Positions 911 through 24,672 of a stretch of 64,000 bases of DNA are shown piece by piece. Source of the DNA: an uncultured delta proteobacterium (GTDB lineage: Bacteria > Myxococcota_A > Polyangia > Polyangiales > Houyiibacteriaceae). The notes below the pieces were generated by a model. That model made no database searches. It saw nothing but the letters and a program-made list of their open reading frames with translations, and had not been told where the DNA came from. Both the position numbers and the translations under genes were made by a program. The stretch lies in NCBI GenBank assembly GCA_963786865.1, contig CAWBAV010000006.1, positions 299,837-363,836 on the forward strand, in the 5' to 3' direction. Numbering within the stretch: the first letter of the stretch is position 1; each line of letters opens with the position of its first letter.

Positions 911-930
911 GCCAGTGCCGGTATCAGCGG
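911..930 (+). repeat. Short CAGYGY-type hexanucleotide array (3 units)
   Basis: gccagt gccggt atcagc gg lies directly next to the inverted 105-nt element. It belongs to the same hexamer family as 12194, 20771, 21951, 22731 and 22923. Confidence 0.5.
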
Positions 931-934
931 AGAA

Positions 935-1040
935 CTGCTCGCGACGGGCGTGCTCGCGATTGGGACCCACTCGCCCCCAATTCCTCAAGACGCCCCACGG
1001 CTAGGCTCGACCCAATCGCTGCGCTGCCCATCCCGAGCCG
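935..1040 (-). repeat. 105-nt imperfect-palindromic intergenic element, copy C (inverted, divergent centre)
   Basis: The reverse complement matches copy A (21481..21585) 29/30 in the 5' arm (cggctcgggatgggcagcRcagcgattggg) and 29/30 in the 3' arm (cccaatcgcgagcacgcccgtcgcgagc). The centre of about 45 nt is unrelated. Confidence 0.8.
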
Positions 1041-1143
1041 TCCTCCTCCGAACGCTTCCAGTGTCAATGCCGCTGGCGCGGTATGGAGGGTTTCTCTTAT
1101 TAAGCAGCTTGACCCCGGCTATTGTCAAAGCAGGCTTCGGCAC

Positions 1144-10247: not shown

Positions 10248-11651
10248 ATGAATCGATTCTGGTTGGCTTTTGGAATTCTGGGCGGCGTCGCCATGGCGGT
10301 GTCTGGTTGTGGTGAGAACAGCAGCGGCGACGTTGGGCCACTCGAGGGCTTCGTCTGCGGCAAAGACGGAAGCACCTATTCCGTCGAAGATGCGGTTCGA
10401 GGGGAGCATGAGGTCGAACACCGGGGGCGCTGCGACGCCCCGATGCACTGCGGCTCGCCCGAGGATTGCTTCGTGGGCGACGAATGCATGCCGGCCGACG
10501 CAGATGGCAATTGGTGCATCCCGGGTCCCACTCGTTGCAACTGCCCTGGCGTCTTCGAGCCGGTCTGCGGCGGCGACTCGCGCAACTACATCAATGCCTG
10601 CGAGGCTGCCTGTGCGGGTGTGGGCATCCGGCACGAGGGGTATTGCCAGGAGCCTCCGGGAGAGGGCTGTGTCCGCGCCGGTTGTAGCGGTCAGCTCTGC
10701 GTCGAAGAGGGCATGGACATCGCGAGCACCTGCGAGTGGCGTCCCGTGTACGAGTGCTACCAGCAGGCCAGCTGCGAGCGCCAGGAAAACGGCCAGTGCG
10801 GCTTCACGCCGACCCACGAGCTCGTCGACTGTCTCGAGCGATTCGGCGAGGGTATGTGCAGCGTCGATCCGCGTTGGCAGGATGGATTCGAGGCGGAATG
10901 CAGCAGCCCTCAGGTGCCCGGGATCGGCGGCGTCATCGCCGTGGAGCCTCATCAGATGATGCACCTCGGCGAATGGTTCGGTGCGAGCTTCAAGTTGCTC
11001 GAGCCGCCCGTCTTTGGCGACCTGTATGAAGGAGAGGGCTTGATCTTCTGCGATGGTGAGCGGACTGCTCTTCAGGGGCGAGTCCGGATGACGCCGCTCG
11101 GAGACCTCGAGGTCGAATGCCGAATCCTGCCCGAGATACATCCCGGCGAGTGCTACGACGATGGCGATTGCGCGCCCGGGACCTTCTGCGAGGCCGGGCA
11201 GTGCATCGCGAACTGCCCCGTCGAGACGCACATCCTCAACTTCCGAGGGGAGTGCGTGCCCAAGTGCTACGGCCCAGAACAGTGCGGCGACGAGCAGCAC
11301 TGCAACGCGGGCGAGGTCTGCTTGCAAGACCCGGCCTGCCCCGAATGCGACGTCTGCGTCGGCTGGTGCGAGGCACCGCCGGACGAATGCAGACCCACCG
11401 GTTGCAACGGCGAGATCTGCGCGAGCCAGGACGTGGCTTCTCCTTGTGTCGCGTTGCCTGAGTTCGCCTGTTACCAGGAGGTCGGCATTTGTGAGATGCA
11501 GACCTGGGGCCAGTGCGGCTGGACTCCCACGCCCGAGCTCGACGAATGCCTCTCTCAGTTTGATTGCCGGGCAGAGGGCTGTGCTGACGGCGCGTACTGC
11601 GGTTACTGCTGGACCAGCTGGGAATGCATCCCTGAAGGCGCAGTGTGTTGA
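10248..11651 (+). CDS. Cys-rich lipoprotein with Kazal-type domain(s) and two copies of an eight-Cys module
   Basis: Signal and lipobox: MNRFWLAFGILGGVAMAVSGC. Kazal signature: CNCPGVFEPVCGGDSRNYINACEAACAGVGIRHEGYC, plus a weaker first copy VCGKDGSTYSVEDA. A duplicated module is CVRAGCSGQLC...CGFTPTHELVDCL and CRPTGCNGEIC...CGWTPTPELDECL. The ORF track starts at a TTG at 10221. Confidence 0.75.
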   Translation: MNRFWLAFGILGGVAMAVSGCGENSSGDVGPLEGFVCGKDGSTYSVEDAVRGEHEVEHRGRCDAPMHCGSPEDCFVGDECMPADADGNWCIPGPTRCNCPGVFEPVCGGDSRNYINACEAACAGVGIRHEGYCQEPPGEGCVRAGCSGQLCVEEGMDIASTCEWRPVYECYQQASCERQENGQCGFTPTHELVDCLERFGEGMCSVDPRWQDGFEAECSSPQVPGIGGVIAVEPHQMMHLGEWFGASFKLLEPPVFGDLYEGEGLIFCDGERTALQGRVRMTPLGDLEVECRILPEIHPGECYDDGDCAPGTFCEAGQCIANCPVETHILNFRGECVPKCYGPEQCGDEQHCNAGEVCLQDPACPECDVCVGWCEAPPDECRPTGCNGEICASQDVASPCVALPEFACYQEVGICEMQTWGQCGWTPTPELDECLSQFDCRAEGCADGAYCGYCWTSWECIPEGAVC

Positions 11652-11699
11652 AGATCTAGCGTTGACCTCGCCGCTGGCCTGACGGCTTCACCATCTCCG

Positions 11700-12149
11700 T
11701 CAGGCTGGCGGCGAGATTTCTATCTTCGTCATCACCGAATTCGCAATGAAGCAGTACTTGTGCGCGTTCGCGTGAAGCTTCTCGAGCTGCTCCGGACTTG
11801 GAGGCTCACCTCCCCACTTGATCTTGGGGGTCAGGGTCACGCGCGTGATCGCGATTCGCTTCTCTTCGTTGCGCTCCATGGTGCCGACGGCCTCGACTTG
11901 ATACTCGTCGATTACGAACCCATCACGGGCGGCGAGCGATAGAAACGTCAGCATGTGGCAGCTCGAAAGGGCGGCAACATACGCTCGCTCCGGGTCGACC
12001 AACTCTGGGTTTCCCAGGTATTCGGGCGCTGCCGATGCACGGACTTGGCTGCCTCCCTCGAACTTCCAGACATGGTCACGCGTGTACTCCTTCGGCGTGA
12101 ATGGGGTGTCCTGACGATCCCAGTGAATCATGGCTCGGTGTACCGACAT
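11700..12149 (-). CDS. OsmC/Ohr-family peroxiredoxin-like protein
   Basis: 149 aa with two conserved Cys contexts (ALSSCHMLTF, HKYCFIANS), typical of OsmC family proteins. Confidence 0.75.
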   Translation of the reverse strand: MSVHRAMIHWDRQDTPFTPKEYTRDHVWKFEGGSQVRASAAPEYLGNPELVDPERAYVAALSSCHMLTFLSLAARDGFVIDEYQVEAVGTMERNEEKRIAITRVTLTPKIKWGGEPPSPEQLEKLHANAHKYCFIANSVMTKIEISPPA

Positions 12150-12171
12150 CGCTACTCCTTCGCGCCAGAAC

Positions 12172-13398
12172 CTAGGGTCGGTCGCGCGGCAAGGCCAGCG
12201 CCAGTGCCAGTGCCGGTGTCAGCCGCCGCTGCCTGGGTCTACGTAGGCTGGAGTGGTTTCGTCGGTCAGGCGGTTTTCGAGGAAACCTTCTGGAAGAGAG
12301 ACTTTTTGCCGGCCGGCAGTCTTTCCTCGGGGCACTCGCATCGCGTCGGGAGGGAAAGGGTTCGGATGCGTCGACGGTGCGGAGTACTACTTCGAGCTCC
12401 TCGAGGCGGGTTACTCGCATCAGTCGCGATCGGAGCTTGGCGCTTCCACGGAAGCCCTTGGTGTACCAACTGCTATGCCGACGGAACATTCGCATCGCCT
12501 GGGTTTCACCCGCCCATTCGCTCAGCAAGCGCGCGTGCTCGAGCGCGATTTCGACGACCTCGCCAAAGGTCGGCGGGTTCGGCGGCTCGTGGCCCTCGAA
12601 GACCTCGGCCAGATCTCGAAAGAGCCATGGGCGTCCGAGACATCCCCGGCCGATCACCACGCCATCGCATCCGGTCATGCGCATCATGCGGAGCGCGTCG
12701 TGAGCTTCCCAGATATCCCCGTTGCCGAGTACTGGTATCGATCGAACGTGTTGCTTCAGGCGAGCTATCGCTTCCCACTGGGCATCGCCGTCGTAGAGCT
12801 GTGAAGCCGTTCGCGCATGCAGAGCAACGGCGGCGCATCCCTCCTCTTCGGCGACGCGACCTGCGTCCTCGTAGGTGAGCAAGCTCTCGTCGATGCCCAT
12901 TCGGAACTTGATCGTGACCGGAATCTCGCCCGCGTTCTGGACAGCCGCGCGGACGATGTTCGCGAGGAGGCGTGGCTTTGCGGGGATGGCCGACCCGCCA
13001 CCCTTGCGCGTCACCTTCGGAACGGGGCATCCGAAGTTCATGTCGATGTGGTCCACGTGCCCTTCGCCAACCAGCCATTTCACTGCTTCGCCGACGTAGT
13101 GAGGATCGACGCCGTAGAGCTGGAGGCTGCGCGGCGATTCGTCTTTGCCGAACTCCGCGAGCATCAGGGCCTTGGCGCGTCCCTCGACCAGAGGTCGCGC
13201 CGTCACCATCTCGCTCACGTAAAGGCCTGCTCCGAAGCGCCTGCAAATTGCGCGAAAGGGCCAGTTGGTGACACCGGCCATCGGCGCGAGCACCACCGGC
13301 GGCCAGACCGACATCGGACCAATTTCGATCGGCGCAAATTCTCCGAGGCGCGCCACGGGCACCGCACGGTTCAGCTCGTTCTTGTACACCTGCTCCAT
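12172..13398 (-). CDS. dus: tRNA-dihydrouridine synthase; the 3' end is probably frameshifted
   Basis: Observed motifs: LAPMAGVTNWPFR, DMNFGCPVPKVTRKGGGSA, VTIKFRMG, HARTASQ. After ...TVDASE the conserved Dus tail PFPPDAMRVPRGKTAGRQKVSLPEGFLENRL continues in another frame, ending at a stop at 12219. The in-frame tail is R/P/S-rich and non-homologous. Confidence 0.85.
   Translation of the reverse strand: MEQVYKNELNRAVPVARLGEFAPIEIGPMSVWPPVVLAPMAGVTNWPFRAICRRFGAGLYVSEMVTARPLVEGRAKALMLAEFGKDESPRSLQLYGVDPHYVGEAVKWLVGEGHVDHIDMNFGCPVPKVTRKGGGSAIPAKPRLLANIVRAAVQNAGEIPVTIKFRMGIDESLLTYEDAGRVAEEEGCAAVALHARTASQLYDGDAQWEAIARLKQHVRSIPVLGNGDIWEAHDALRMMRMTGCDGVVIGRGCLGRPWLFRDLAEVFEGHEPPNPPTFGEVVEIALEHARLLSEWAGETQAMRMFRRHSSWYTKGFRGSAKLRSRLMRVTRLEELEVVLRTVDASEPFPSRRDASAPRKDCRPAKSLSSRRFPRKPPDRRNHSSLRRPRQRRLTPALALALALPRDRP
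12194..12229 (+). repeat. CAGYGY-type hexanucleotide array (6 units)
   Basis: gccagc gccagt gccagt gccggt gtcagc cgccgc. It overlaps the 3' end of dus. Confidence 0.6.
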
Positions 13399-13440
13399 GA
13401 AGGGAATGCTCGTCGGACGAAGGGGTTTCGCCGTCTTTGC

Positions 13441-14292
13441 TCAGCTCACGACGGCGAGACGGCGGTGGCCGCCAGTACGCACGAGCTTCATGCGCCAGTC
13501 GACGCCGATGAGCTCTCCGGGCTCGAGTGGAAGCCAAATATTCTCGCCCTGGATCGTCTCGCTCGAAAAAATCAGGTGATTGACGTAGCCGCTTTCCGAG
13601 GGCGCTTCGCATTCAGGTGACAGACTGGGGCACGAGTCGCGGTCCCCGCACTCCGTCTTGTAGGTCGACCAGAAGAGCTCCTTGCCGCCTTCGGCTGCCA
13701 CCATGGTCGTCCCGTCCGTGACGATGATCGTCAGAAGCGAGCGCTCTTTGTCGGGATCGACGTCGCAAATGGCGCGAACGTGCTCGAGCGTCGACTGCAG
13801 AGCCATGGACGTTTCTTCGACGCCGATGCGTCCATGGAGTGGACCATGCTGCGCAAGATGCGTGAGAAACATGAAGAATACGACCTCGCTGTCGGTTTCG
13901 CCGAGGATGTAGCGCCGCAGCTTCGGTGCGATGCGTCGAAGGAGCTCTGGGCGGTGCTTGGGAAAGTCCTGGATGTCGCCGTTGTGCGCCATGATCCACT
14001 TGCCGTACTGGAACGGGTGGCAGTTCAGGACGGAGAGCTCGCCGTTTGTTGCGCGTCGGACGTGAGCCAAGACGGTTTCGGAAGCCACGATACCGCTGAC
14101 GCGATGAAAGAGAGTGTCGTCGAGCGCGGTGGCGGGGCTTCGGGTGATGTGTGGCGCTCCGTCGACGTAAAACGCCACACCCCAGCCATCGCGGTGGTCG
14201 GTGCTCTGCGCGCCGAGCGCGTTGTCCGCGTCCATCAAGGACCGGTGTACCTGGCTCTGGATCACGCTTCGAAAGCCGAATAAGCGACACAT
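13441..14292 (-). CDS. Class II (Ntn) glutamine amidotransferase, YafJ-like
   Basis: The N-terminal MCRLFG supplies the Cys2 nucleophile. Other matches: DGWGVAFY, HVRRATNG...NCHPF, AHNGDI. Confidence 0.8.
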   Translation of the reverse strand: MCRLFGFRSVIQSQVHRSLMDADNALGAQSTDHRDGWGVAFYVDGAPHITRSPATALDDTLFHRVSGIVASETVLAHVRRATNGELSVLNCHPFQYGKWIMAHNGDIQDFPKHRPELLRRIAPKLRRYILGETDSEVVFFMFLTHLAQHGPLHGRIGVEETSMALQSTLEHVRAICDVDPDKERSLLTIIVTDGTTMVAAEGGKELFWSTYKTECGDRDSCPSLSPECEAPSESGYVNHLIFSSETIQGENIWLPLEPGELIGVDWRMKLVRTGGHRRLAVVS

Positions 14293-14356
14293 AACCCGTT
14301 CATTTTGACACGAACTGCGGCGTGATGCTCCCTCCGCTGTTCAGGAGCCGGGTCGG

Positions 14357-15723
14357 GTGTTAAGGTGCGCGCCCGTGAAGCGATTTCGGCGTCTTTTCAT
14401 CGCGAACCGTGGCGAGGTTGCCGCACGTGTCGCTCGGACATGCGATGCGATGGGCATCACGCCCGTCTTTGGCGTGTCGGATGCTGATCGCGACGCGCCG
14501 TACCTGCGAGGTCGGGAGTCCATAGTGCTTGGCCCGGCGAGATCGAGCGAGAGTTATCTCGCACGCGAGCGTATCGTGCAGGCGGCCGTTCAAGCTCAGT
14601 GCAGCGCCCTTCACCCGGGCTGGGGGTTTCTGGCGGAAGATCCGCTCTTTGCCTCTCTCTGTGAGGCGCATGGTGTGACGTTCATCGGACCGCCCTCCGC
14701 CGTCATGGCGAAGCTCGGTCGGAAGACGCCGGCCAAAGCAGCGATGGCCGCGGCTGGGTTGAAGCTCATTCCGGGGAGCGACGGGGTGCTGCTGGACGTC
14801 CAGCAGGCGCAGGAGATGGCGGCCGAGACAGGTTTTCCGATCCTCTTGAAAGCCGAGAGTGGTGGAGGCGGCCGAGGGATGCGCATCGTCCGGAAAGCGG
14901 CCGACTTGAAGGAGGCGTACGATTCCGCGCAGTCCGAGTCCCTGGCTTGCTTTGCCGACGACCGCCTCTACCTCGAGAAGCTGATCGAAGGCGGGCGGCA
15001 CATCGAGATTCAACTGCTCGCGGACAAGTATGGAAACGTCGTCCATCTGGGAGAGCGGGACTGCTCGGTGCAGCGCAAGCACCAGAAACTAATCGAGGAG
15101 TCGCCGGCCCTGGTTCTGAGCGCAGCGGAGCGCGAAAACACGCTCGCTGCGGCCGTTCGAGCTGCGCGCGCGATCGGCTACGTCGGCGCCGGCACGATGG
15201 AGTTCCTGCTCGACGAAGGTGGCGAGCTCCGATTCATGGAGATGAATGCGCGACTTCAAGTGGAGCATCCGGTTTCCGAGATGCGAACGGGCGTCGACCT
15301 GGTCGAGGCTCAGATCCGCATTGCAGGCGGGGAGCCGCTTTCGTTCTCGCAGGAAGACATCGAGTTCCGGGGACATGCGATCGAGTGCCGCATCAATGCG
15401 GAGGATCCATCGAACGGGTTCGCCCCGAGTCCGGGCGTCATCGAACGGTGGAAGGTCGCAGTCACTGGAGACGAACAGGTGCGCGTCGATACTCACGTCG
15501 AATCCGGATACGAGGTTCCGCCCCACTACGACAGCCTGATCTGCAAGGTGATCGCCTGGGGTGCGGATCGGGATGCGGCCTGCGATCGTTTGTCGGAGGC
15601 CTTGAAGAGCATCCGTTGCGATGGCATTTCGACGACGATACCCATGCACCTTGCGGTCCTGAGCTCGGAGGAGTTTCGCGAGAACCGGTACGACACGCGC
15701 GCCGTACCAGGGTGGGAGAGCTG

Positions 15724-15724
<1 letters not shown>
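14357..15724 (+). CDS. Biotin carboxylase subunit of an acyl-CoA carboxylase
   Basis: Observed motifs: [76 protein letters not shown]. The likely start is the GTG at 14375 ([14 protein letters not shown]). Confidence 0.9.
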
Positions 15725-17450
<1,726 letters not shown>

Positions 17451-17454
<4 letters not shown>

Positions 17455-18041
17455 GCGGCAACGCCTACGTCTTGCGGGCGCGGTTCGGGGAAGCCGGCAC
17501 GAGTCAGCTTCTGGCGCCGACGGTTGGCGTGTTCACCGCTCGGGTTCGTGAAGGAGAGCTCGTTTCCGCCGGGCAGGTGCTGGGGTCGATCGACGTTCTC
17601 GGCGTGCTGAGCGAGCTCCGCGCTCCCGAAGGTGTAGCCGGACGCGTCACGAGTCGAATAGGTGGCGCACGCACGCGGATTCCCGTTCAGTTTGGCGATC
17701 CGCTCTTCGCGATCTCGACGTCTTCGATGGCTCCGGTTGCCAAGTCGGGCGTGGTCGGCGGCGAGAGCTCCTCAGCCGCCCTTTCGTTTACTGCACCCAT
17801 GAGCGGCCGCTTCTACAGCCGGCCATCTCCAAGCGATCCACCATTCGTATCGGCGGGTGACATCGTCCAACGCGGTCAGACGATCGGCCTGCTCGAGGTG
17901 ATGAAGACCTTCAATCGGCTCGTGTACCAAGGAGAGGCTCTTCCTGAGCGAGCGCTGGTGGTGAAGATAGTCCCGGGCGAGGGTGACGACGTCGTTCGCG
18001 GGGATCTGATCCTGGCGCTCGGCTCGTCGACGAAGACCTGA
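17451..18041 (+). CDS. Biotin carboxyl carrier protein with a degenerate first lipoyl-like domain
   Basis: ATGA overlap with the CT gene. The C-terminal domain has [16 protein letters not shown] (biotinyl-Lys motif). The N-terminal domain, [21 protein letters not shown], has the same fold signature but no Lys. Confidence 0.8.
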
Positions 18042-18057
18042 AGCGCGGAGAGGCGAA

Positions 18058-19008
18058 ATGGGTAGGGCCTCATTGCTTCTCTTGCTGGTACTGAGCTCGT
18101 GTCGGACGCCGGGCCCGTCGACCGTGGCGGGCGATGTCAGTGAGATCAAGGGCTTCGTGTTCAAGCACGGGGGAATCGTGCGTTCGGTGGGCGTCTTCGA
18201 CCCGAGGCGGCCCGAGGAGATCGGGCTTCGACCGCTCGTCTTGGTCTTGCACGGTGGCCTCGGAGACGACGACGATACCGTGGTGCTCCGCTTTGGAAAG
18301 CTCAATCGCCTTGCAGCCGAGGATGATTTTCTGGTTGTCTATCCCCAAGGCCTTGGCGGACATTGGAACGACGGACGGGACGTGGAACGCTACGTCGCTC
18401 ACCGTGAGCGCGTCGACGACGTGGGCTTCTTGGCGTCCTTGATCGACGACCTGGTGGAGAAGCGCAACGTCGACGCCAACGCCGTGTTCATCGTCGGCGT
18501 GTCCGACGGCGCGATGATGGCGCATCGCTTCGCCTGTGAGCGCAGCGCAAAGCTCCGCGGTTTCACGGCGGTCGTCGGCGCGATGCCCTACAACGTCGCG
18601 CGCCGGTGGGCCCGATGCGGCAAGGACACGCTCTCGGTCTTGATGATCAACGGTACCGAGGATCCGATCGTTCCCTGGGAGGGCGGCTCAGTCACGTTCG
18701 ACGGACAGGAGCTCGGCAAGGTTCTTTCCGCCGAGCGCACGTTCGAGCTCTGGAGCCGGCACGACGGCTGCAAGGACGTCGCCATCACGATGATCCCCGA
18801 CTTCGTTCCGAGCGATGGCACTCGAATCGAAAGACGGCAGGCGATCGAGTGCCGCGACGGCAGCAAGGTCGAGCTCTTCGCCGTGCAGGGTGCAGGGCAC
18901 ACTTGGCCGTCCGGATGGCAATATCTTCCGGAGCACATGGTGGGCGCAACGAGCCGAGACATCGACGCGGCAATTGCTGCCTGGCGTTTCTTCCAGAGCA
19001 CGCTCTAG
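18058..19008 (+). CDS. LpqC/PHB-depolymerase-family esterase (lipoprotein)
   Basis: Signal and lipobox LLLLLVLSSC. Other matches: LVLVLHGG, VDDVGF, GVSDGAMMA (GxSxG), GTEDPIVPW, GAGHTWP. Confidence 0.7.
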   Translation: MGRASLLLLLVLSSCRTPGPSTVAGDVSEIKGFVFKHGGIVRSVGVFDPRRPEEIGLRPLVLVLHGGLGDDDDTVVLRFGKLNRLAAEDDFLVVYPQGLGGHWNDGRDVERYVAHRERVDDVGFLASLIDDLVEKRNVDANAVFIVGVSDGAMMAHRFACERSAKLRGFTAVVGAMPYNVARRWARCGKDTLSVLMINGTEDPIVPWEGGSVTFDGQELGKVLSAERTFELWSRHDGCKDVAITMIPDFVPSDGTRIERRQAIECRDGSKVELFAVQGAGHTWPSGWQYLPEHMVGATSRDIDAAIAAWRFFQSTL

Positions 19009-19038
19009 CGTCGTGCGTGAGGGTGCTAGACTGCACCC

Positions 19039-20226
19039 ATGCTGGCCCCGAAGCTCGGCGATCGCAGCCTATTTCCGGACCTCGAAGCGAGAGCGTACCT
19101 CGCACACGCGGCGATTTCGCCGCTTTCGCGTCCCGTTTGCGAACGCATCGCAGACGTTACGCAAGACTACGCGAGAGGCGGCATGGCGGGCTTCCTGCGC
19201 TGGGCGCCGCGGCTGAAAGAGGTGCGGAGCGGGTTCGCCCGATTGATCGGGGCCGCCCCGAACGAGATCGCGTTTGTCGCCAACACCACACAGGGCGTCA
19301 TCGACATCGCGTTCGGGCTTCCCTGGAAAAAGGGCGACCGCGTCCTGCTCTTCGATGGTGAGTTTCCGGCAAACGTCACGCCCTGGCAGCAAGCCGCCAA
19401 AGAGTTTGGTCTGGAGCTCTGCTGGCTCTCACTCGATGCGTTTCAACTCTCGATCGATGAAGGCCTCGCGGAGCTCGAGGGCGCGCTCGACCTAGGTGTT
19501 CGCCTAGTCGCGGTGAGTGCGGTCCAATACAAGACGGGGCTTCGCATGCCGCTCGCCGAGATGGCCGCGCTTTGCCACCGATATGGTGCTGAGATCTTCG
19601 TCGATGCGATTCAAGCGCTCGGAGCGACGCCTGTCGATGTCGCTTCGGGCATCGATTATCTCAGCTCCGGTAGCCACAAGCATCTGATGGGCGCCGAGGG
19701 GGCGGGCTTTTTGTATGTGGCCGAGCGCTGCGCCGACACGTTGCAACCGAGGCTCGCCGGCTGGCTCGGCCACGAAGACCCCGTCGCGTTCCTCGTGGGT
19801 GATGGCCCTCGACTCCGATACGACACTCCTCTGCTACACGGCGCTCCGGCCCTCGAAATCGGCACCAGCAATGTGATCGGTCTAGCCGCGGTGGGAGCAT
19901 CCATCGAGTTGCTCGAACAGCTCGGCGTGCCGCGGATCCACGCGCATGTCGGCGGCTATCTCGACGCGCTCGAATCCGGGCTCGTCGAGCTCGGCTTTCA
20001 GAGCCATCGCGCCACGGCGCCGGAGCTGCGTTCCACTCTCCTCAGCGTGACCGTTCCCGAAGACCTGCGACTCTCGAAGCTCGCGGCCGCGCTCAGGCAC
20101 GAGGGGGTGGTTTGCAATACGCCCGACGGTCTCATGCGCTTTGCCCCGCACTGGCCGAATGCGCACGATGAGGTTCCCACCGTTCTCGGTGCCGTGGAGC
20201 GGGCACTGGCCGAGCTTCGGACATGA
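19039..20226 (+). CDS. Class V aminotransferase / cysteine-desulfurase-like PLP enzyme
   Basis: 395 aa. FVDAIQALG...DYLSSGSHKHLMG (PLP lysine) shows the fold-type I class V pattern. Confidence 0.75.
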   Translation: MLAPKLGDRSLFPDLEARAYLAHAAISPLSRPVCERIADVTQDYARGGMAGFLRWAPRLKEVRSGFARLIGAAPNEIAFVANTTQGVIDIAFGLPWKKGDRVLLFDGEFPANVTPWQQAAKEFGLELCWLSLDAFQLSIDEGLAELEGALDLGVRLVAVSAVQYKTGLRMPLAEMAALCHRYGAEIFVDAIQALGATPVDVASGIDYLSSGSHKHLMGAEGAGFLYVAERCADTLQPRLAGWLGHEDPVAFLVGDGPRLRYDTPLLHGAPALEIGTSNVIGLAAVGASIELLEQLGVPRIHAHVGGYLDALESGLVELGFQSHRATAPELRSTLLSVTVPEDLRLSKLAAALRHEGVVCNTPDGLMRFAPHWPNAHDEVPTVLGAVERALAELRT

Positions 20227-20241
20227 ACCTAGGCTGGCACG

Positions 20242-20763
20242 ATGGCGGCTCAAAGCGACCGAAGCTTCTGGATCTTCAACGCGGCGGTTTCGAGTGCTGC
20301 CGTCGGGTTCCTCGGCTGGCTTCTGCTCATTCGTGAAGGCGGCGGCGTCGACGCAGACCTCGGTTTCATGCCCGGCGTGAACGCAGCGCTCAACGCCGCC
20401 GCCGCCTCCTTGCTGCTTCTCGGGCTGGCCGCGATCCGAAGCGGGCGCCGGGCAGTCCACAAGCGACTGATGGTTTCAGCGTTTGCCGCCTCGACCGTGT
20501 TCCTAGTGGGATATGTTCTTTACCACTACGTGCACGGCGACACTCCGTACCAGGGGGTCGGAACGATTCGCACCATCTACTTCACGATCCTGATCACCCA
20601 CGTTCTTCTGTCGATCGTGATGCTCCCGATGATTTTGACGACGTTCTATTTCGCGGCGCGTGAGCGCTTTGCAGCGCACAAGAAGCTCGCGAGGTGGACG
20701 CTACCGATCTGGCTCTACGTGTCGGTGACGGGTGTGATCATCTACTTCATGCTGCGCCCGTAG
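20242..20763 (+). CDS. DUF420-family membrane protein
   Basis: 173 aa with four TM helices and conserved His residues (VHKRLM, ILITHVLLS), as in DUF420/CtaM-like proteins. Confidence 0.6.
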   Translation: MAAQSDRSFWIFNAAVSSAAVGFLGWLLLIREGGGVDADLGFMPGVNAALNAAAASLLLLGLAAIRSGRRAVHKRLMVSAFAASTVFLVGYVLYHYVHGDTPYQGVGTIRTIYFTILITHVLLSIVMLPMILTTFYFAARERFAAHKKLARWTLPIWLYVSVTGVIIYFMLRP

Positions 20764-20770
20764 GAGTGCT

Positions 20771-20840
20771 CGTGTCCGTGACAGCGCCAGTGTCAGGGCC
20801 AGTGTCAGCGTCAGCGCCGGTGCCAGCGTCCGTGTCGGCG
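20771..20840 (+). repeat. CAGYGY-type hexanucleotide array (about 11 units)
   Basis: cgtgtc cgtgac agcgcc agtgtc agggcc agtgtc agcgtc agcgcc ggtgcc agcgtc cgtgtc. It starts 8 nt after the DUF420 stop. Confidence 0.8.
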
Positions 20841-20960
20841 ACTGTTGTTCCGGACGCACATCGTGCGTCTGGGGCACGCCCTTCCTTGTAAGATCCTCTG
20901 CGGTTTGCTGGTGCAGCAGCTGGCCCGGATCTTGCTTCGTTTTTCGGGCAGGATTTTGCC

Positions 20961-21440
20961 GTGAACGTCCGCGTACATTCTTTTTCGATTTACGCACTAG
21001 GGGCCGCTTTGCTCGGGCCATCCTCCCTGGGACTTGCGCAGGCCGCCCGATCCACGGAAGCACCACGATCGTCGATCGCGTACGCAGGGGATGAGCTCGC
21101 CTTTACGTCGACCACCGAGGACGTCGAGCATTCGCTGCATCGAGCCACGAAGAAGGTTCGCCGTGCCGGTGTTGGCCTAGGACTGTCGCTGGCGGCTGTT
21201 CCGGTGGGCGCCGCTCTGATCACGAAAGGCATGCAACGGAGTGTCGCTGCCTCTGCCGACGACGGTGACGCAATGCTCCTCGCCGGAATGGTGACGGCGA
21301 TCGGCGGCTTGGTCGGAGTCGTCGCGAGCGGCGCGGTTCTCGCCCCGGCCCGGCGAGACAAACGCCGTCTCCAAATGGCCCTCGCACCTACGACCCTGCG
21401 CCTCGGACCCGGCTCTGTAGCGATTGCCCATCGGTTCTAA
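20961..21440 (+). CDS. Hypothetical secreted/membrane protein
   Basis: GTG start. The signal-like N-terminus is FSIYALGAALLGPSSLGLAQA. Two Gly/Ala-rich TM segments follow. I recognised no homology. Confidence 0.4.
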   Translation: MNVRVHSFSIYALGAALLGPSSLGLAQAARSTEAPRSSIAYAGDELAFTSTTEDVEHSLHRATKKVRRAGVGLGLSLAAVPVGAALITKGMQRSVAASADDGDAMLLAGMVTAIGGLVGVVASGAVLAPARRDKRRLQMALAPTTLRLGPGSVAIAHRF

Positions 21441-21480
21441 ACGGCGGCAGTGTCTCTGAGTCGATATCTACGTAGGGGAG

Positions 21481-21585
21481 CGGCTCGGGATGGGCAGCAC
21501 AGCGATTGGGCGGGAGGCGAGACGTACGGAGTCGTAGAGAGACGGCCGAGCGGGCCCCAATCGCGAGCACGCCCGTCGCGAGCCG
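21481..21585 (+). repeat. 105-nt imperfect-palindromic intergenic element, copy A
   Basis: 102/105 identical to 22809..22913. The terminal arms are mutually complementary. It lies 96 nt upstream of the yeaQ-like ATG. Confidence 0.9.
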
Positions 21586-21681
21586 CCCCCCGGTGTGAAG
21601 CATGACGTTCGACCCGTTGGACCTGGGAATTCTTTACCCGTGGCTCGGTTTGTTCGACACTTCGCCCCAAGGAGAGCCTCG

Positions 21682-21933
21682 ATGGGAATCGTTTCGTGGA
21701 TTGTGTTCGGATTGATCGCTGGCTTGCTGGCCAAGTTCATCATGCCGGGCGATGACTCGGGTGGCTTCATCAAGACGACCGTGATCGGTGTCGTGGGCGC
21801 GCTCATCGGCGGCTACATCGGCACGCGGCTCGGCTTCGGCACCGTCACCGGATTCAACCTGCGCAGTCTCGCGATCGCCAGCGCAGGAGCGCTGATCGTG
21901 TTGTGGGTCTATCGGTTGGTGAAGAAGAACTGA
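21682..21933 (+). CDS. GlsB/YeaQ/YmgE-family (transglycosylase-associated) small membrane protein
   Basis: The ATG at 21682 follows aaggagag. MGIVSWIVFGLIAGLLAKFIMPG...GFIKTTVIGVVGALIGGYIG is the family signature. Confidence 0.8.
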   Translation: MGIVSWIVFGLIAGLLAKFIMPGDDSGGFIKTTVIGVVGALIGGYIGTRLGFGTVTGFNLRSLAIASAGALIVLWVYRLVKKN

Positions 21934-21950
21934 GCCCCCCGCGCCCCGAT

Positions 21951-22040
21951 CGTGCCAGCGCTAGCGCTAGCGCCAGTGGCAGTGTCAGCGTCAGTGTCAG
22001 CGCCAGTGCCAGAGATAGTGTCAGCGCCCACGTCCGTCTG
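21951..22040 (+). repeat. CAGYGY-type hexanucleotide array (about 15 units)
   Basis: cgtgcc agcgct agcgct agcgcc agtggc agtgtc agcgtc agtgtc agcgcc agtgcc agagat agtgtc agcgcc cacgtc cgtctg. It starts 18 nt after the yeaQ-like stop. It is preceded by ccgatcgtgcc, as is array 22923. Confidence 0.8.
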
Positions 22041-22058
22041 ACTCTTCTTTGTCATCGC

Positions 22059-22133
22059 GATCTCCTTTTCGCCTGTGTCTGGGGTCGGGCTTCGCCCTTT
22101 CGGGGAACCCCACACCCAGGCGAAAAGGAGATC
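22059..22133 (+). promoter_or_regulatory. Long hairpin sequestering the RBS of the four-helix-bundle gene
   Basis: The 27-nt arms 22059..22085 and 22107..22133 pair at 25/27 positions. The right arm contains AAGGAG (22125..22130), 7 nt before the ATG at 22138. Confidence 0.6.
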
Positions 22134-22137
22134 ACTC

Positions 22138-22464
22138 ATGCGACTCATCATTCAGCAACGGGCGCTCGAGGCAGCACGCGGGCTTCGGCAGGTGATGCCG
22201 GTCATCAAGAAGCGGGACCGGTCGCTCTTCGATCAGATCCATCGGGCGATGAATAGCGTCGTGCTCAACATCGCGGAGGCTGAAGGAAACGATCCCGGCA
22301 CGGCCAAGGCGCGCTTCGCGTCGGCCTGCGGGTCCGCCAAAGAAGTGCGGGCCGGCATCCAACTTGGAGTTGCATACGGCTACTTCCCGAGCGCAACAGT
22401 GAAATCCGTCGACACCGCGCTCGACGAAGTCTGCGCGATGTCGTGGCGGCTCTCGGGCCGCTAG
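22138..22464 (+). CDS. Four-helix-bundle protein (23S rRNA intervening-sequence protein family)
   Basis: 108 aa. DQIHRAMNSVVLNIAEAEGN...ARFASACGSAKEVRAGIQLGVAYGYF matches the TIGR02436/PF05635 pattern (NIAEG...GS..E). Confidence 0.8.
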   Translation: MRLIIQQRALEAARGLRQVMPVIKKRDRSLFDQIHRAMNSVVLNIAEAEGNDPGTAKARFASACGSAKEVRAGIQLGVAYGYFPSATVKSVDTALDEVCAMSWRLSGR

Positions 22465-22536
22465 ACACAGCCAAGGGCATCCGAGCCCTTGTCCCCGAAG
22501 ACCGCCGCTGTCCCCGCCACTGAAAGTGACGCGCGC

Positions 22537-22725
22537 AGGGGCACGGGCGAACGCGACGCGGGGTTCCGTCGAACGGCTCGGCTTGCAATTGTGGTCGGAT
22601 GCACTGGAGGGGTTGGACCACGCAAGCCTCGCCTCGGCGCTCACGCCAATCGGAGGTGGTTGCTCGCTTGCCGATTGTCATTCGCGACGTCGACTCCACC
22701 CCAGATCGCGTTCGCCCGTGCCCCT
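22537..22725. repeat. Perfect 20-bp inverted repeat pair separated by 149 bp
   Basis: aggggcacgggcgaacgcga (22537..22556) is the exact reverse complement of tcgcgttcgcccgtgcccct (22706..22725). Confidence 0.85.
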
Positions 22726-22730
22726 CCGTA

Positions 22731-22774
22731 CGGCAGTGTCACTCGCAGCGGCAGCGGCAGCGGCAGCGGCAGGG
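22731..22774 (+). repeat. Hexanucleotide array including four perfect CGGCAG units
   Basis: cggcag tgtcac tcgcag cggcag cggcag cggcag cggcag gg. Confidence 0.8.
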
Positions 22775-22808
22775 CCCGCGCGCGTGCATCGACGCGTACA
22801 AAGGAGGG

Positions 22809-22913
22809 CGGCTCGGGATGGGCAGCACAGCGATTGGGCGGGAGGCTAGACGTACGGAGTCGTAAAGAGACGGCCGAGCGGGACCCAATCGCGAGCACGC
22901 CCGTCGCGAGCCG
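22809..22913 (+). repeat. 105-nt imperfect-palindromic intergenic element, copy B
   Basis: 102/105 identical to copy A. It lies between the convergent four-helix-bundle and cstA genes. Confidence 0.9.
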
Positions 22914-22922
22914 TCCTCCGAT

Positions 22923-22946
22923 CGTGCCAGTGCCAGTGTCAGTGAA
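22923..22946 (+). repeat. CAGYGY-type hexanucleotide array (4 units) containing the cstA stop codon
   Basis: cgtgcc agtgcc agtgtc agtgaa. The cstA stop (tca on the + strand, 22939..22941) lies inside it. Confidence 0.6.
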
Positions 22947-24672
22947 CCGCGCCTTGCTCGGTCCGTTGGATCCGGCGCAGCGCGAGGACGCCTTCCACGA
23001 TCATCCAGAGCAGCAAGACGAGAAGAAGCGAGGCGAGGGCGGCGAGTGGGGCGTTTCCTTCTGCGAGGAAGTCTTGCAGCTTTGCGAAGAGCGCGAGGCC
23101 AGCGACCGGCATGACCAGCGCCATGGGGATGACCAGCGGCCATACCGGACGCTTTCGTGCGAGGAAGTAGAGGGCCAGCGTCATCAGGGTGAGCGCGGCT
23201 AGAAGTTGATTGCTTGCGCCAAAGATCGGCCAGAGCACCCATCCGACGGCCTTGGCTTGGCCGGTGCTCGGGTCGGGGGTTTCGGCGATCGCCAAGTACA
23301 TCGCGGGCACGACGGCGATGATCGTGGCGATGTACGGATTGGTGAGCGGCTTGAACCGGATGACTGCTCCGATCTCGCTGAGGATGAAGCGCTGAATGCG
23401 AGCGGCCGTGTCGAGTGAGGTGGCTGCGAAGGCGATCACCAGGACCGCCATCAAGGTGCGCGCGAGCTCCGGAGACAAGCCGACTGCTTCTAGGAACGCG
23501 CCGCCACCGAGTACGAACGCGGCGGCCTTGTTGCCGCCCGCGTGCGCCCAGCTGTCGTAGTAGATCGCCCAGCTGAGATCATCGACCGCGCCTTGGCCCG
23601 GCAAGGCGCAGGCGCCGACCAAGCCGATGCCGGCGACGGCGGCAAGCGTGGCCGCGAGCGCGAGCGACCCTTCACCGAGCATGCCGCCGTATCCGATCAT
23701 GCGGGCGTCCGATAGTCGATCGATTTGCTTCGAGGTCGTTCCGGCTGCGACCAGGCCGTGAAACCCGCTGATCGCGCCGCACGCGATGGTGACGAAGAGA
23801 ATGGGAAAGATCGAAGGCGCCCCAGCTTCTGGGCTACGGTAGATCGGTGCGTCGAACTCCGGGTGAGCGATGAGAACGCCCAGAAAGAGAAGACCCAGAC
23901 CGACGAAAAGCTGATGGCTGTTGATGTAGTCGCGCGGTTGAAGAAGCAGCCAGACCGGCAGAAGACTCGCGATGGCCGAATACACCAAGAGGAAGAAGAT
24001 CCAGCCCGTCGTTGCCGTGTGCTTGTCGACGCCCATCGCGACGAAGTCGATGGGGACTTTGGTACCCACCCAGACGAAGATGTAGAGCACGATGAGGGCG
24101 ATCACCGACGGCCAGAGGATCTTCACGCGGCGCTTGTAGATGAGCCAACCGATCAGGAGGGCCACGATGATCTGGATGTTGATCGGAATGACGCTGGCCG
24201 GCTCACTCACGAAGAGGCCGGCAATCGCCATCGCGAAGACCGCAAGAACGAGCCAAATCAGTACCAGCACGAAGCACATGAACAGAATCCGCGCGCGTCC
24301 GCTCACCGTCTTTGCGGTGATGTCCGCGATCGAACGACCCTTTTCGCGCACGCTCACGACCACCGCGCCGAAGTCGTGCGCGGCGCCCATGAAGATCGTG
24401 CCGAGAACCACCCACGCGAGGGCCGGGCCCCATCCCCAATAGGCCGCCACACAGGGGCCGATGATCGGCGCAGCGCCCGCGACCGAAGTGAAGTGGTGTC
24501 CGAACAGGATGGCCCGTTGCGTTGGCACGAAGTCCAGCCCGTCCTCGAGCTCATGGGCGGGCGTGATCAGGTCCTCTTGGTCCTGGTAGATCCGCTCGCC
24601 GAGGAATCGCGCGTAGAAGCGGTATGCGACCAGGAATGCACCGAGGATCAGAGCTGCGGCCAAGGCTGCCAT
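22939..24672 (-). CDS. cstA: Carbon starvation protein CstA (peptide/pyruvate transporter family)
   Basis: 577-aa polytopic membrane protein. ILFGHHFTSVAGAAPIIGP and FVTIACGAISGFHGLVAAGTTSKQ are CstA hallmarks. Confidence 0.9.
   Translation of the reverse strand: MAALAAALILGAFLVAYRFYARFLGERIYQDQEDLITPAHELEDGLDFVPTQRAILFGHHFTSVAGAAPIIGPCVAAYWGWGPALAWVVLGTIFMGAAHDFGAVVVSVREKGRSIADITAKTVSGRARILFMCFVLVLIWLVLAVFAMAIAGLFVSEPASVIPINIQIIVALLIGWLIYKRRVKILWPSVIALIVLYIFVWVGTKVPIDFVAMGVDKHTATTGWIFFLLVYSAIASLLPVWLLLQPRDYINSHQLFVGLGLLFLGVLIAHPEFDAPIYRSPEAGAPSIFPILFVTIACGAISGFHGLVAAGTTSKQIDRLSDARMIGYGGMLGEGSLALAATLAAVAGIGLVGACALPGQGAVDDLSWAIYYDSWAHAGGNKAAAFVLGGGAFLEAVGLSPELARTLMAVLVIAFAATSLDTAARIQRFILSEIGAVIRFKPLTNPYIATIIAVVPAMYLAIAETPDPSTGQAKAVGWVLWPIFGASNQLLAALTLMTLALYFLARKRPVWPLVIPMALVMPVAGLALFAKLQDFLAEGNAPLAALASLLLVLLLWMIVEGVLALRRIQRTEQGAVH

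Follow-up and report, generated by a model that had tools for sequence, protein, structure and literature searches.

The ERIC/IRU elements of Enterobacteria are multi-copy imperfect palindromes of 127 nt that reside in intergenic regions likely to be transcribed, operons included, and are conserved beyond their flanking genes. The BOX elements of Streptococcus pneumoniae are modular boxA-boxB-boxC mosaics, with varying numbers of units placed between conserved structured modules. REPINs are extragenic, multi-copy elements whose two inverted arms, separated by a spacer, pair into a hairpin in mRNA or single-stranded DNA; the doublets show stronger conservation than single arms, and REPs and REPINs are found mainly after genes and between convergent or tandem open reading frames (ORFs) (PMC3116915, PMC3733652). 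In this report, we analyze a stretch of 64,000 nucleotides (the window) from an uncultured delta proteobacterium of the Polyangiales (Houyiibacteriaceae; assembly GCA_963786865.1, contig CAWBAV010000006.1, positions 299,837 to 363,836 of the forward strand), where two 97%-identical direct repeats, designated A and B, bracket a yeaQ-like gene and a four-helix-bundle (4HB) gene. We consider it likely that A and B are resident copies of a dispersed and conserved hairpin family of the Polyangiales, ~116 nt in length, that sit in the spacers flanking yeaQ, and that their resemblance to each other is mainly a family trait. By analogy, the family is best placed among the dispersed structured intergenic repeats, with ERIC/IRU, REPIN/BIME and BOX as the closest analogues.

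The hairpin family resembles ERIC in having a similar size, a long imperfect hairpin, multiple copies, a location within an operon in at least one instance (guaB-guaA) and a conservation across species that exceeds that of the flanking genes. It differs in coming from another phylum and in being one module of a mosaic, together with a second structured module of ~190 nt that we call BIG and with hexamer arrays; no likeness to ERIC in sequence was seen, although no search aimed at it was made, and the TA target duplication reported for ERIC could not be shown for the hairpin family. As with REPINs, the hairpin is extragenic, has many copies, comprises two 36-nt arms (75% complementary) placed 45 nt apart, and is better conserved as a doublet than as lone arms. 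BIMEs, in which REPs alternate in orientation, can be likened to the adjacent modules favored on opposite strands in our mosaic. However, the arms here are ~36-50 nt, rather than REP palindromes of 20-40 nt, and the two arms of a hairpin differ systematically (~6/30 positions in all copies). The GTAG/CGTC definition of REPs entails a terminal tag, a stem of 8-9 bp, a loop of 4-5 nt and a short tail, and the hairpin lacks a GTAG or CGTC tag with such a stem-loop. Assignment as a CGTC-tagged REP was thus rejected, as the CGTC in the 3' arm is followed by GCGAGCCGYYCTCC, with no 8-9-bp stem and 4-5-nt loop. The REP survey reports no REPs from Myxococcota. Terminal inverted repeats, as in MITEs of the ERIC/Correia type, are present both as the hairpin arms and at the ends of 13 composites described below, with no consistent target-site duplication at the outer ends, and the locus variants that we found are imprecise deletions. 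The likeness to BOX lies in a modular intergenic mosaic with variable units between structured modules, but sequence and host are unrelated, variability here resides in a 6-nt array, and the structure of the modules is much stronger.

The sequence-only reading of this window had described a 105-nt element present at 21481-21585 (A) and 22809-22913 (B). In-register comparison of the two yielded the same 3 mismatches in 105 positions, with G, G and C in A replaced by T, A and A in B. A repeat search of the window stretched the pair to 124 nt at 93% identity, and a 36-nt core shared exactly by A and B occurs twice vs. 0 expected in shuffles. The weaker similarity reported for ~20 nt upstream (TCGAY..GTAC..GGAG) was confirmed as well; this segment is a leader common to many family members, with TACANA or TTCAATA conserved immediately 5' of AGGAG. 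The distant inverted copy with a diverged center, designated C, also held up, lying on the minus strand at 929-1048 with ~80% identity to A. A covariance model of the hairpin found exactly 3 copies in the window, namely C (929..1048, minus strand, subtype I, 131.8 bits), B (22801..22919, plus strand, subtype II, 123.6 bits) and A (21473..21591, plus strand, subtype II, 112.7 bits), whereas the reverse strands of these copies scored only 41-50 bits. Copy A folds as RNA at -71.2 kcal/mol (z -4.7). Copy C is also present at the orthologous site in a relative, DASRZF01 (contig L033), which is ~90% identical to the window around C.

Given this multiplicity, we asked whether the 97% identity of A and B is special among 159 sampled copies, with identities computed over the 105-nt core. 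A and B are 97.1% identical, and either one matches two subtype-II copies in DASRZF01 at 94-95%. A is 96.2% identical (4 differences) to an unlinked copy on an unrelated metagenome contig from another organism (L085). Among subtype-I copies, the mean pair identity is 93%, with 5% of pairs at or above 97%; cross-species pairs reach 99.1% (L015-L022) and 98.1% (L037-L028b), and an unlinked pair within one genome 98.1% (L004a-L024). Copy C is closer to copies in other species (93-96%) than to its own positional ortholog in L033 (91.5%). Because cross-species and unlinked pairs equal or exceed A/B, we consider it likely that the identity of A and B is mainly a property of the family and subtype, each copy being held near its consensus. 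A high identity among copies generally had been named beforehand as the finding that would speak against a local event, and this is largely what we found.

That A and B arose by recent local duplication or gene conversion, and that as direct repeats they drive RecA-mediated excision or amplification of a yeaQ-4HB cassette, is in our judgment decidedly unlikely. The observation that runs counter to a purely familial explanation is that A and B are mutual nearest relatives among the 159 copies, with 3 differences vs. 4 for the next; they also fall in one subtype, whereas L062, a syntenic relative, has a different subtype at the position of A, and the pair ranks at the 98.4th percentile of inter-locus pairs. 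In addition, neighboring copies tend to be alike (L004a/b 98.1%, A/B 97.1%, L035a/b 95.2%), and for this reason some local copying or gene conversion may contribute to the likeness of A and B, even though the excess amounts to one nucleotide. On the other hand, unlinked copies reach 97-99% identity, and A and B each carry ~2 private changes from the subtype-II consensus. Deletion between A and B by RecA would be physically possible, as judged by their longest blocks of identity (~30-38 nt), which exceed the minimum generally cited for RecA-dependent recombination.

The cassette part of this proposal fares less well when related contigs, found through CstA homologues, are compared. The yeaQ-like gene lies between DUF420 and CstA in L044, L045 and L049. 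In L049 (CstA 87% identical at the amino acid level), the order is CstA, 91 bp, yeaQ, 15 bp and DUF420, with a lone 3'-arm remnant, CCCAGCGCGAGCACGTGCGTCGCGACCGATTCTCC, in the 91-bp spacer. L044 (96% nucleotide identity) has retained yeaQ but is without two segments of the window: the first (20762..21573) comprises an array, a doubtful ORF (orf159) and most of hairpin A, as read from the blastn junctions, while the second (21935..22927) comprises an array, the hairpin over the 4HB ribosome-binding site (RBS), the 4HB gene, BIG, an array and hairpin B; the last ~22 nt of A and a short array remain. L045 (96% nucleotide identity) also has yeaQ but no 4HB gene; of the elements, it preserves the final 8 nt of BIG, the leader and B's 5' arm. 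In L046 (89%), the CstA stop codon is adjoined by a long array and by a fragment of the 5' arm in inverted orientation. L048 (CstA 88% identical) has no yeaQ, yet it also has no hairpin at the junction. In L062, which is syntenic with window positions 11376-20757 at 77% nucleotide identity, BIG and a subtype-III hairpin stand right after the DUF420 stop codon, at the position of A. Deletion junctions in the relatives fall at short homologies (CCGT, GCCCC, CGAT) or inside arrays. Thus, structural variants do exist in L044, L045 and L046, but none has the single-element junction expected from A x B recombination. By these comparisons yeaQ is an ancestral resident and not cargo, and both of its flanking spacers have long held family members. 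Because yeaQ is ancestral (L049, L044, L045) and stays where elements are lost, the interval is not a cassette; the elements occupy two separate and independently variable spacers. A metagenome scan with a 33-mer from the yeaQ leader gave no match.

The hairpin family itself is multi-copy, intergenic and spread over many species and metagenomes. Exact matches to a 24-mer from the 3' arm were found at 43 loci in ~12 species-level Polyangiales/Myxococcota metagenome-assembled genomes (MAGs), with DASRZF01 alone contributing 18 of the 43, and an independent scan with a 27-mer of the 5' arm recovered at least 120 metagenome contigs. In a set of 105 full-length copies retrieved through the 5' arm, 80 show no more than 1 mismatch over the 28-nt 3' arm and 101 no more than 3, so the conservation is not an artefact of the first search pattern. 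Of 41 copies checked for gene overlap, 35 are free of any called gene and 6 have an overlapping approximate call. Rfam 15 gave no match at the gathering threshold in the whole window and nothing relevant at E<=5 within 20600-23100, and in 18 related loci it returned only tRNA and SRP RNA. Keyword searches of the literature likewise found no specific description of such repeats from Polyangiales or myxobacteria.

Each copy is an imperfect hairpin of ~116 nt that reads AGGAGRR-CGGCTCGGGATGGGCAGCACAGCGATTGGG, a variable center, and CCCAATCGCGAGCACGCCCGTCGCGAGCCG-YYCTCC. The inverted-repeat arm type of the family reads TCAACCGTACGATCGGAGAAC... In an alignment of 41 copies, the consensus comprises 37 pairs, with 97.8% of cells paired vs. 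93.8% in shuffles and 35-46% in slid controls. Changes on both sides of a pair were observed at 11 pairs vs. 5.2 +/- 1.1 in shuffles (0/500 shuffles reached the observed value), mostly in the basal stem (GGAGAA/UUCUCC, GGAGGG/CCCUCC, GGGGGA/UCCCCC, UGCCUCG/CGAGGCA) but also in the central helices, by which the three subtypes are defined; mismatches inside the hairpin do not vary. At pair positions, G-U is found at 16 and A-C at 3, and the strand as aligned gives the more stable fold in 41/41 copies. In view of this predominance of G-U over A-C and of the uniformly stabler aligned strand, the structure is maintained on one strand, either as RNA or as single-stranded DNA. A protein-coding role was considered, given an invariant AGGAGG-N10-ATG, but was rejected because indels between subtypes I, II and III shift the frame while the 3' arm stays invariant; in subtype II, the frame from the invariant ATG ends after 15 codons. 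Two other candidates were dismissed: a retron msr/msd, brought up by the apparent selection of hairpin and BIG on opposite strands, since its modules stand in the wrong order whichever way they are read, copies are many and a reverse transcriptase is lacking, and an intrinsic terminator, since the hairpin has no direct U-tract and a consensus scan found none at the elements.

The companion module, BIG (22536..22727 in the window, directly upstream of hairpin B), is predicted to form a three-helix structure with a long closing stem and two internal hairpins. BIG is found upstream of the hairpin in a fixed relative orientation in 40/51 full copies, at a median gap of 45 nt that is filled by CATATCCATTCAATA or by a hexamer array of variable length. 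Of its 55 predicted pairs, 18 have compensatory changes, a number reached by 0/500 shuffles, and slid controls are 37-47% paired. In BIG, A-C is seen at 13 pair positions and G-U at 1, and the reverse complement is the stabler strand in 14/16 copies. As this pattern of pairs and fold stability reverses that of the hairpin, the two modules appear to be selected on opposite strands. In 25/34 copies, BIG begins 0-16 nt (median 6.5 nt) past the stop codon of a same-strand gene upstream, with TAG and TAA stops looking frequent, apparently above the expectation for a high-GC genome; elsewhere, the 3' arm is found inverted in front of BIG. The latter arrangement produces 13 composites, 237-569 nt long, whose two ends are inverted arms of ~45 nt terminating in TCAACC, with no gene inside and no recognizable target duplication. 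BIG is also absent from Rfam. Two species share an orthologous guaB-[BIG-hairpin]-guaA locus (L041 vs. L028), in which the flanking genes are 82% and the hairpin 91% identical; by eye from the alignment, the hairpin is ~98% identical outside the basal stem and the BIG center ~97%, and the stem differences in both modules are compensatory.

Taken at face value, dispersal of this kind could mean that the hairpin, alone or with BIG, is purely selfish DNA, a non-autonomous transposon of the MITE or REPIN type whose structure serves transposition with no RNA function, either by folding as a hairpin in single-stranded DNA or by offering terminal inverted repeats to a transposase encoded elsewhere. 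The copies are indeed dispersed at unrelated loci, lone arm fragments occur, the 13 composites have inverted ends, the elements avoid divergent promoter regions, and the abutment of BIG on stop codons, with its apparently frequent TAG/TAA, fits insertion at rare AT-containing sites; G-T wobble, moreover, would be tolerated in single-stranded DNA too. Against these stand the compensatory changes, the retention of copies at orthologous sites and an identity above that of the flanking genes, which are unexpected for decaying DNA, as well as the systematic differences between 5' and 3' arms. In addition, domain searches of the 64-kb window revealed neither a transposase nor an integrase or reverse transcriptase; across the 169 fetched loci and the window, no arm pair had a spacing of 600-4000 nt or enclosed a gene, and no target-site duplication was recognized. 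REPINs have as their partner a single-copy RAYT (Y1) transposase flanked by the repeats, and none was found here: phmmer with an IS200 TnpA query, a weak test, gave no IS200-like ORF in the loci, and no such domain is present in the 64-kb window. Weighing both sides, we regard a purely selfish element as somewhat unlikely.

The gene flanks were mapped for 159 hairpins. The gene upstream of the hairpin is co-oriented in 80 and opposite in 32 copies, while the gene downstream is convergent in 85 and co-oriented in 48; the neighbors themselves are unrelated housekeeping genes. Viewed by spacer type, 40/88 hairpins lie between convergent genes and 9/88 between divergent genes, with a median of 44 nt to the stop codon of the convergent gene. 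Accordingly arranged, the mosaic of arrays, BIG, hairpin and sometimes an array-hairpin-4HB unit prefers the 3' ends of genes, especially between convergent genes. The same counts bear on whether the hairpin is instead an independent small-RNA gene or a cis-regulatory leader of the downstream gene. At first glance, this is attractive for the window, where A lies 90 nt upstream of yeaQ and C ~120 nt upstream of the MoxR-like gene, each on the same strand as its gene, and the conserved 5' leader and strand-specific structure would fit as well. Nevertheless, the downstream gene is co-oriented in only 48 of the 159 copies, no sigma-70 consensus promoter was found within 20600-23100, and the -10-like box adjoins the basal stem, so that a transcript starting there would lack the covarying 5' strand. 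We therefore view a small-RNA gene or leader as very unlikely.

We postulate, tentatively and with somewhat less than even confidence, that the hairpin, on its aligned strand, and BIG, on the opposite one, act as RNA structures at the 3' ends of transcripts, and that the spread of the family was that of an ERIC/REPIN/BIME-type non-autonomous repeat whose copies are lost by deletion. In this scheme, the rightward transcript of a convergent gene pair would run through BIG first and then through the hairpin in its favored orientation, just before the opposing gene. The leftward transcript would traverse the hairpin first and then BIG in its favored orientation, against the stop codon of the upstream gene. 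For each transcript, the final stable structure ahead of the far gene would thus be its favored module, and the hairpin and BIG together would comprise two one-way modules forming a two-way barrier, be it a terminator or a 3'-end protector. Copies would be propagated as a non-autonomous repeat and lost by imprecise deletion.

Several of our own findings weigh against this scheme and against the family reading that underlies it. There is no U-tract after the hairpin, the 3' flanks reading CCGATCGTAYGGTTG or CCGGTGAC, and a consensus scan of 20600-23100 found neither a consensus terminator nor a sigma-70 promoter. Each transcript would meet the less favored module first, which is odd for a simple terminator. 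With no transposase partner and no clear target-site duplication in the fetched loci and the window, mobility is deduced only from the distribution of copies. The gene flanks depend on approximate calls from a GC3-based caller, and the search patterns, which required an exact match of 24 or 27 nt, force part of the conservation.

Within the A-B interval, the sequence-only reading had counted two small genes and arrays in 1223 bp; these are present, but two structured modules, the RBS hairpin (22059-22133) and BIG, had escaped it. The first gene (21682..21933, plus strand) encodes a YeaQ-like, transglycosylase-associated protein (PF04226, 48.4 bits vs. a cut-off of 25.3). The second (22138..22464, plus strand) encodes a 4HB protein of the 23S rRNA intervening-sequence/Avd-like type (PF05635, 50.2 bits vs. 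33.8, 3.5e-13; TIGR02436, 46.8 bits vs. 24, 2.8e-12). Exact-protein look-ups of both gave no match. The RBS hairpin (plus strand, 27-nt arms, 93% complementary, fold z -6.9) holds the AAGGAG ribosome-binding site of the 4HB gene in its 3' arm and stops ~5 nt before the start codon. It is kept in L053, and the fact that the arms differ between the window and L053 yet remain complementary suggests translational control of the 4HB gene by sequestration of the ribosome-binding site.

A PF05635 4HB gene was found near the hairpin in 9 of ~170 sequences searched, directly upstream and on the same strand in 7/9. The distance from gene to hairpin is 65-100 nt in L038, L053, L083, L115, L135 and L158 and 224 nt in L141; in the window, 338 nt separate the 4HB gene from hairpin B, with BIG in between. 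The unit of array, RBS hairpin and 4HB gene (21952-22465 in the window) aligns at 77-85% with L053 and L131, while a match of 81% in L083 is confined to 21969-22318. The 4HB gene is missing in the close relatives L044 and L045. The PF05635 family includes Avd of diversity-generating retroelements (DGRs); to our knowledge, Avd-like 4HB proteins have no known role outside DGRs.

This protein family raises the question of whether the hairpin might be an integron attC-like site, or the TR/VR pair of a DGR that uses the 4HB protein as its Avd. An attC site follows a small ORF and folds strand-specifically into an imperfect hairpin of 57-141 nt whose center varies. The 116-nt hairpin, itself imperfect, is reminiscent of this in its conserved unpaired bases, its variable center and its position downstream of a small ORF. 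However, the alignment shows no RYYYAAC / GTTRRRY core sites at the hairpin ends, the copies stand singly among housekeeping genes and not in arrays, most lack a cassette ORF, and the window has neither integrase nor reverse transcriptase. For a DGR, the A/B differences (G/T, G/A, C/A) are not adenine-specific, and a 4HB gene accompanies too few of the hairpins. We give either alternative next to no credence. The 4HB gene does share a protein family, and a position between stable hairpins, with 23S rRNA intervening sequences and DGR Avd; it differs in not being in an rRNA gene, in having no reverse transcriptase or TR/VR, and in recurring as an array-hairpin-ORF-hairpin unit in intergenic DNA. 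A more ambitious reading, which we hold to be unlikely, is that the hairpin and BIG are two undescribed structured-RNA classes, selected on opposite strands, that form a purpose-built two-way barrier at gene ends, with the array-RBS hairpin-4HB-hairpin unit being a self-contained mobile unit whose protein binds these RNAs. If true, this would provide the first functional or mobility context outside DGRs for the orphan 23S rRNA intervening-sequence protein family.

For the locus in question, the outcome is deflationary in that the repeat pair offers no evidence for either a recent duplication or an excisable yeaQ/4HB cassette. The family as such merits attention for being abundant in uncultivated Polyangiales while absent from Rfam, and for an unusually clean covariation (11/37 pairs in the hairpin, 18/55 in BIG); selection on opposite strands, adjacency to stop codons, the hexamer arrays and the link to 4HB genes are its unusual features. 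It is also of practical relevance to annotators of myxobacterial MAGs, as the repeats probably break short-read assemblies. L047 (Logan SRR33469053), whose CstA is identical, terminates exactly at the stop codon of that gene, next to the array and hairpin, consistent with breakage at repeats; in DASRZF01, elements stand ~110 nt short of the contig end in L033 and ~360 nt short of the locus edge in L023. The hairpin family probably fragments MAG assemblies of these organisms.

Hexamer arrays accompany the modules throughout the locus. In the window, TRF and the repeat search placed a (CAGYGY)n array after the DUF420 stop codon (20771..20842), and TRF alone an array preceding the 4HB gene with NAG at 6-nt intervals (21952..22028), a (GCAGCG)n array between BIG and hairpin B (22731..22772) and a short (GTGCCA)n array that separates hairpin B from the stop codon of CstA (22924..22944), the last being kept in L044, L045 and L046 by sequence comparison; a further hexamer array lies at 12194-12222. 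Over many loci, the arrays (CAGYGY, or CTGRCR on the other strand) are very variable in length, up to ~190 nt in L053, and flank hairpins, BIG and 4HB genes, with deletion junctions falling within them. The array upstream of 4HB genes is always in the sense orientation, with NAG every 6 nt. A sigma-54 promoter was considered for the TGGCAC arrays and rejected on inspection, the GG-to-GC spacing being off by one.

The 159-codon orf159 (20961-21440), between the first array and hairpin A, has a GC3 of 0.67, a GC2 of 0.56 and a weak codon bias; it has no Pfam or NCBIfam match, is absent from L044, L048 and L049, and is probably not a gene. The rest of the 64-kb window consists of housekeeping genes.

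Beside copy C, a segment of ~860 bp (1071-1912), between the hairpin and hemL, is missing from the DASRZF01 relative; it holds two small ORFs (1144-1377 and 1469-1834) with no Pfam family above the curated cut-off. In the DASRZF01 locus L023, hemL is ~150 nt from a hairpin element. One metagenome contig, L131, carries two different 4HB genes tail to tail (803-1458), ~14 bp apart, that are 87% identical to the window type and 90% identical to the L038 type, respectively, with a hairpin ~640 nt off. Lastly, a recurring motif, GGGCTTCGCCCTTCGGG, comprising two UUCG-type mini-hairpins, is found in the BIG-hairpin spacers of L020, L037, L040, L039 and L043 as well as in the loop of the 4HB leader hairpin of the window (22086-22106), and may be another module of the mosaic.

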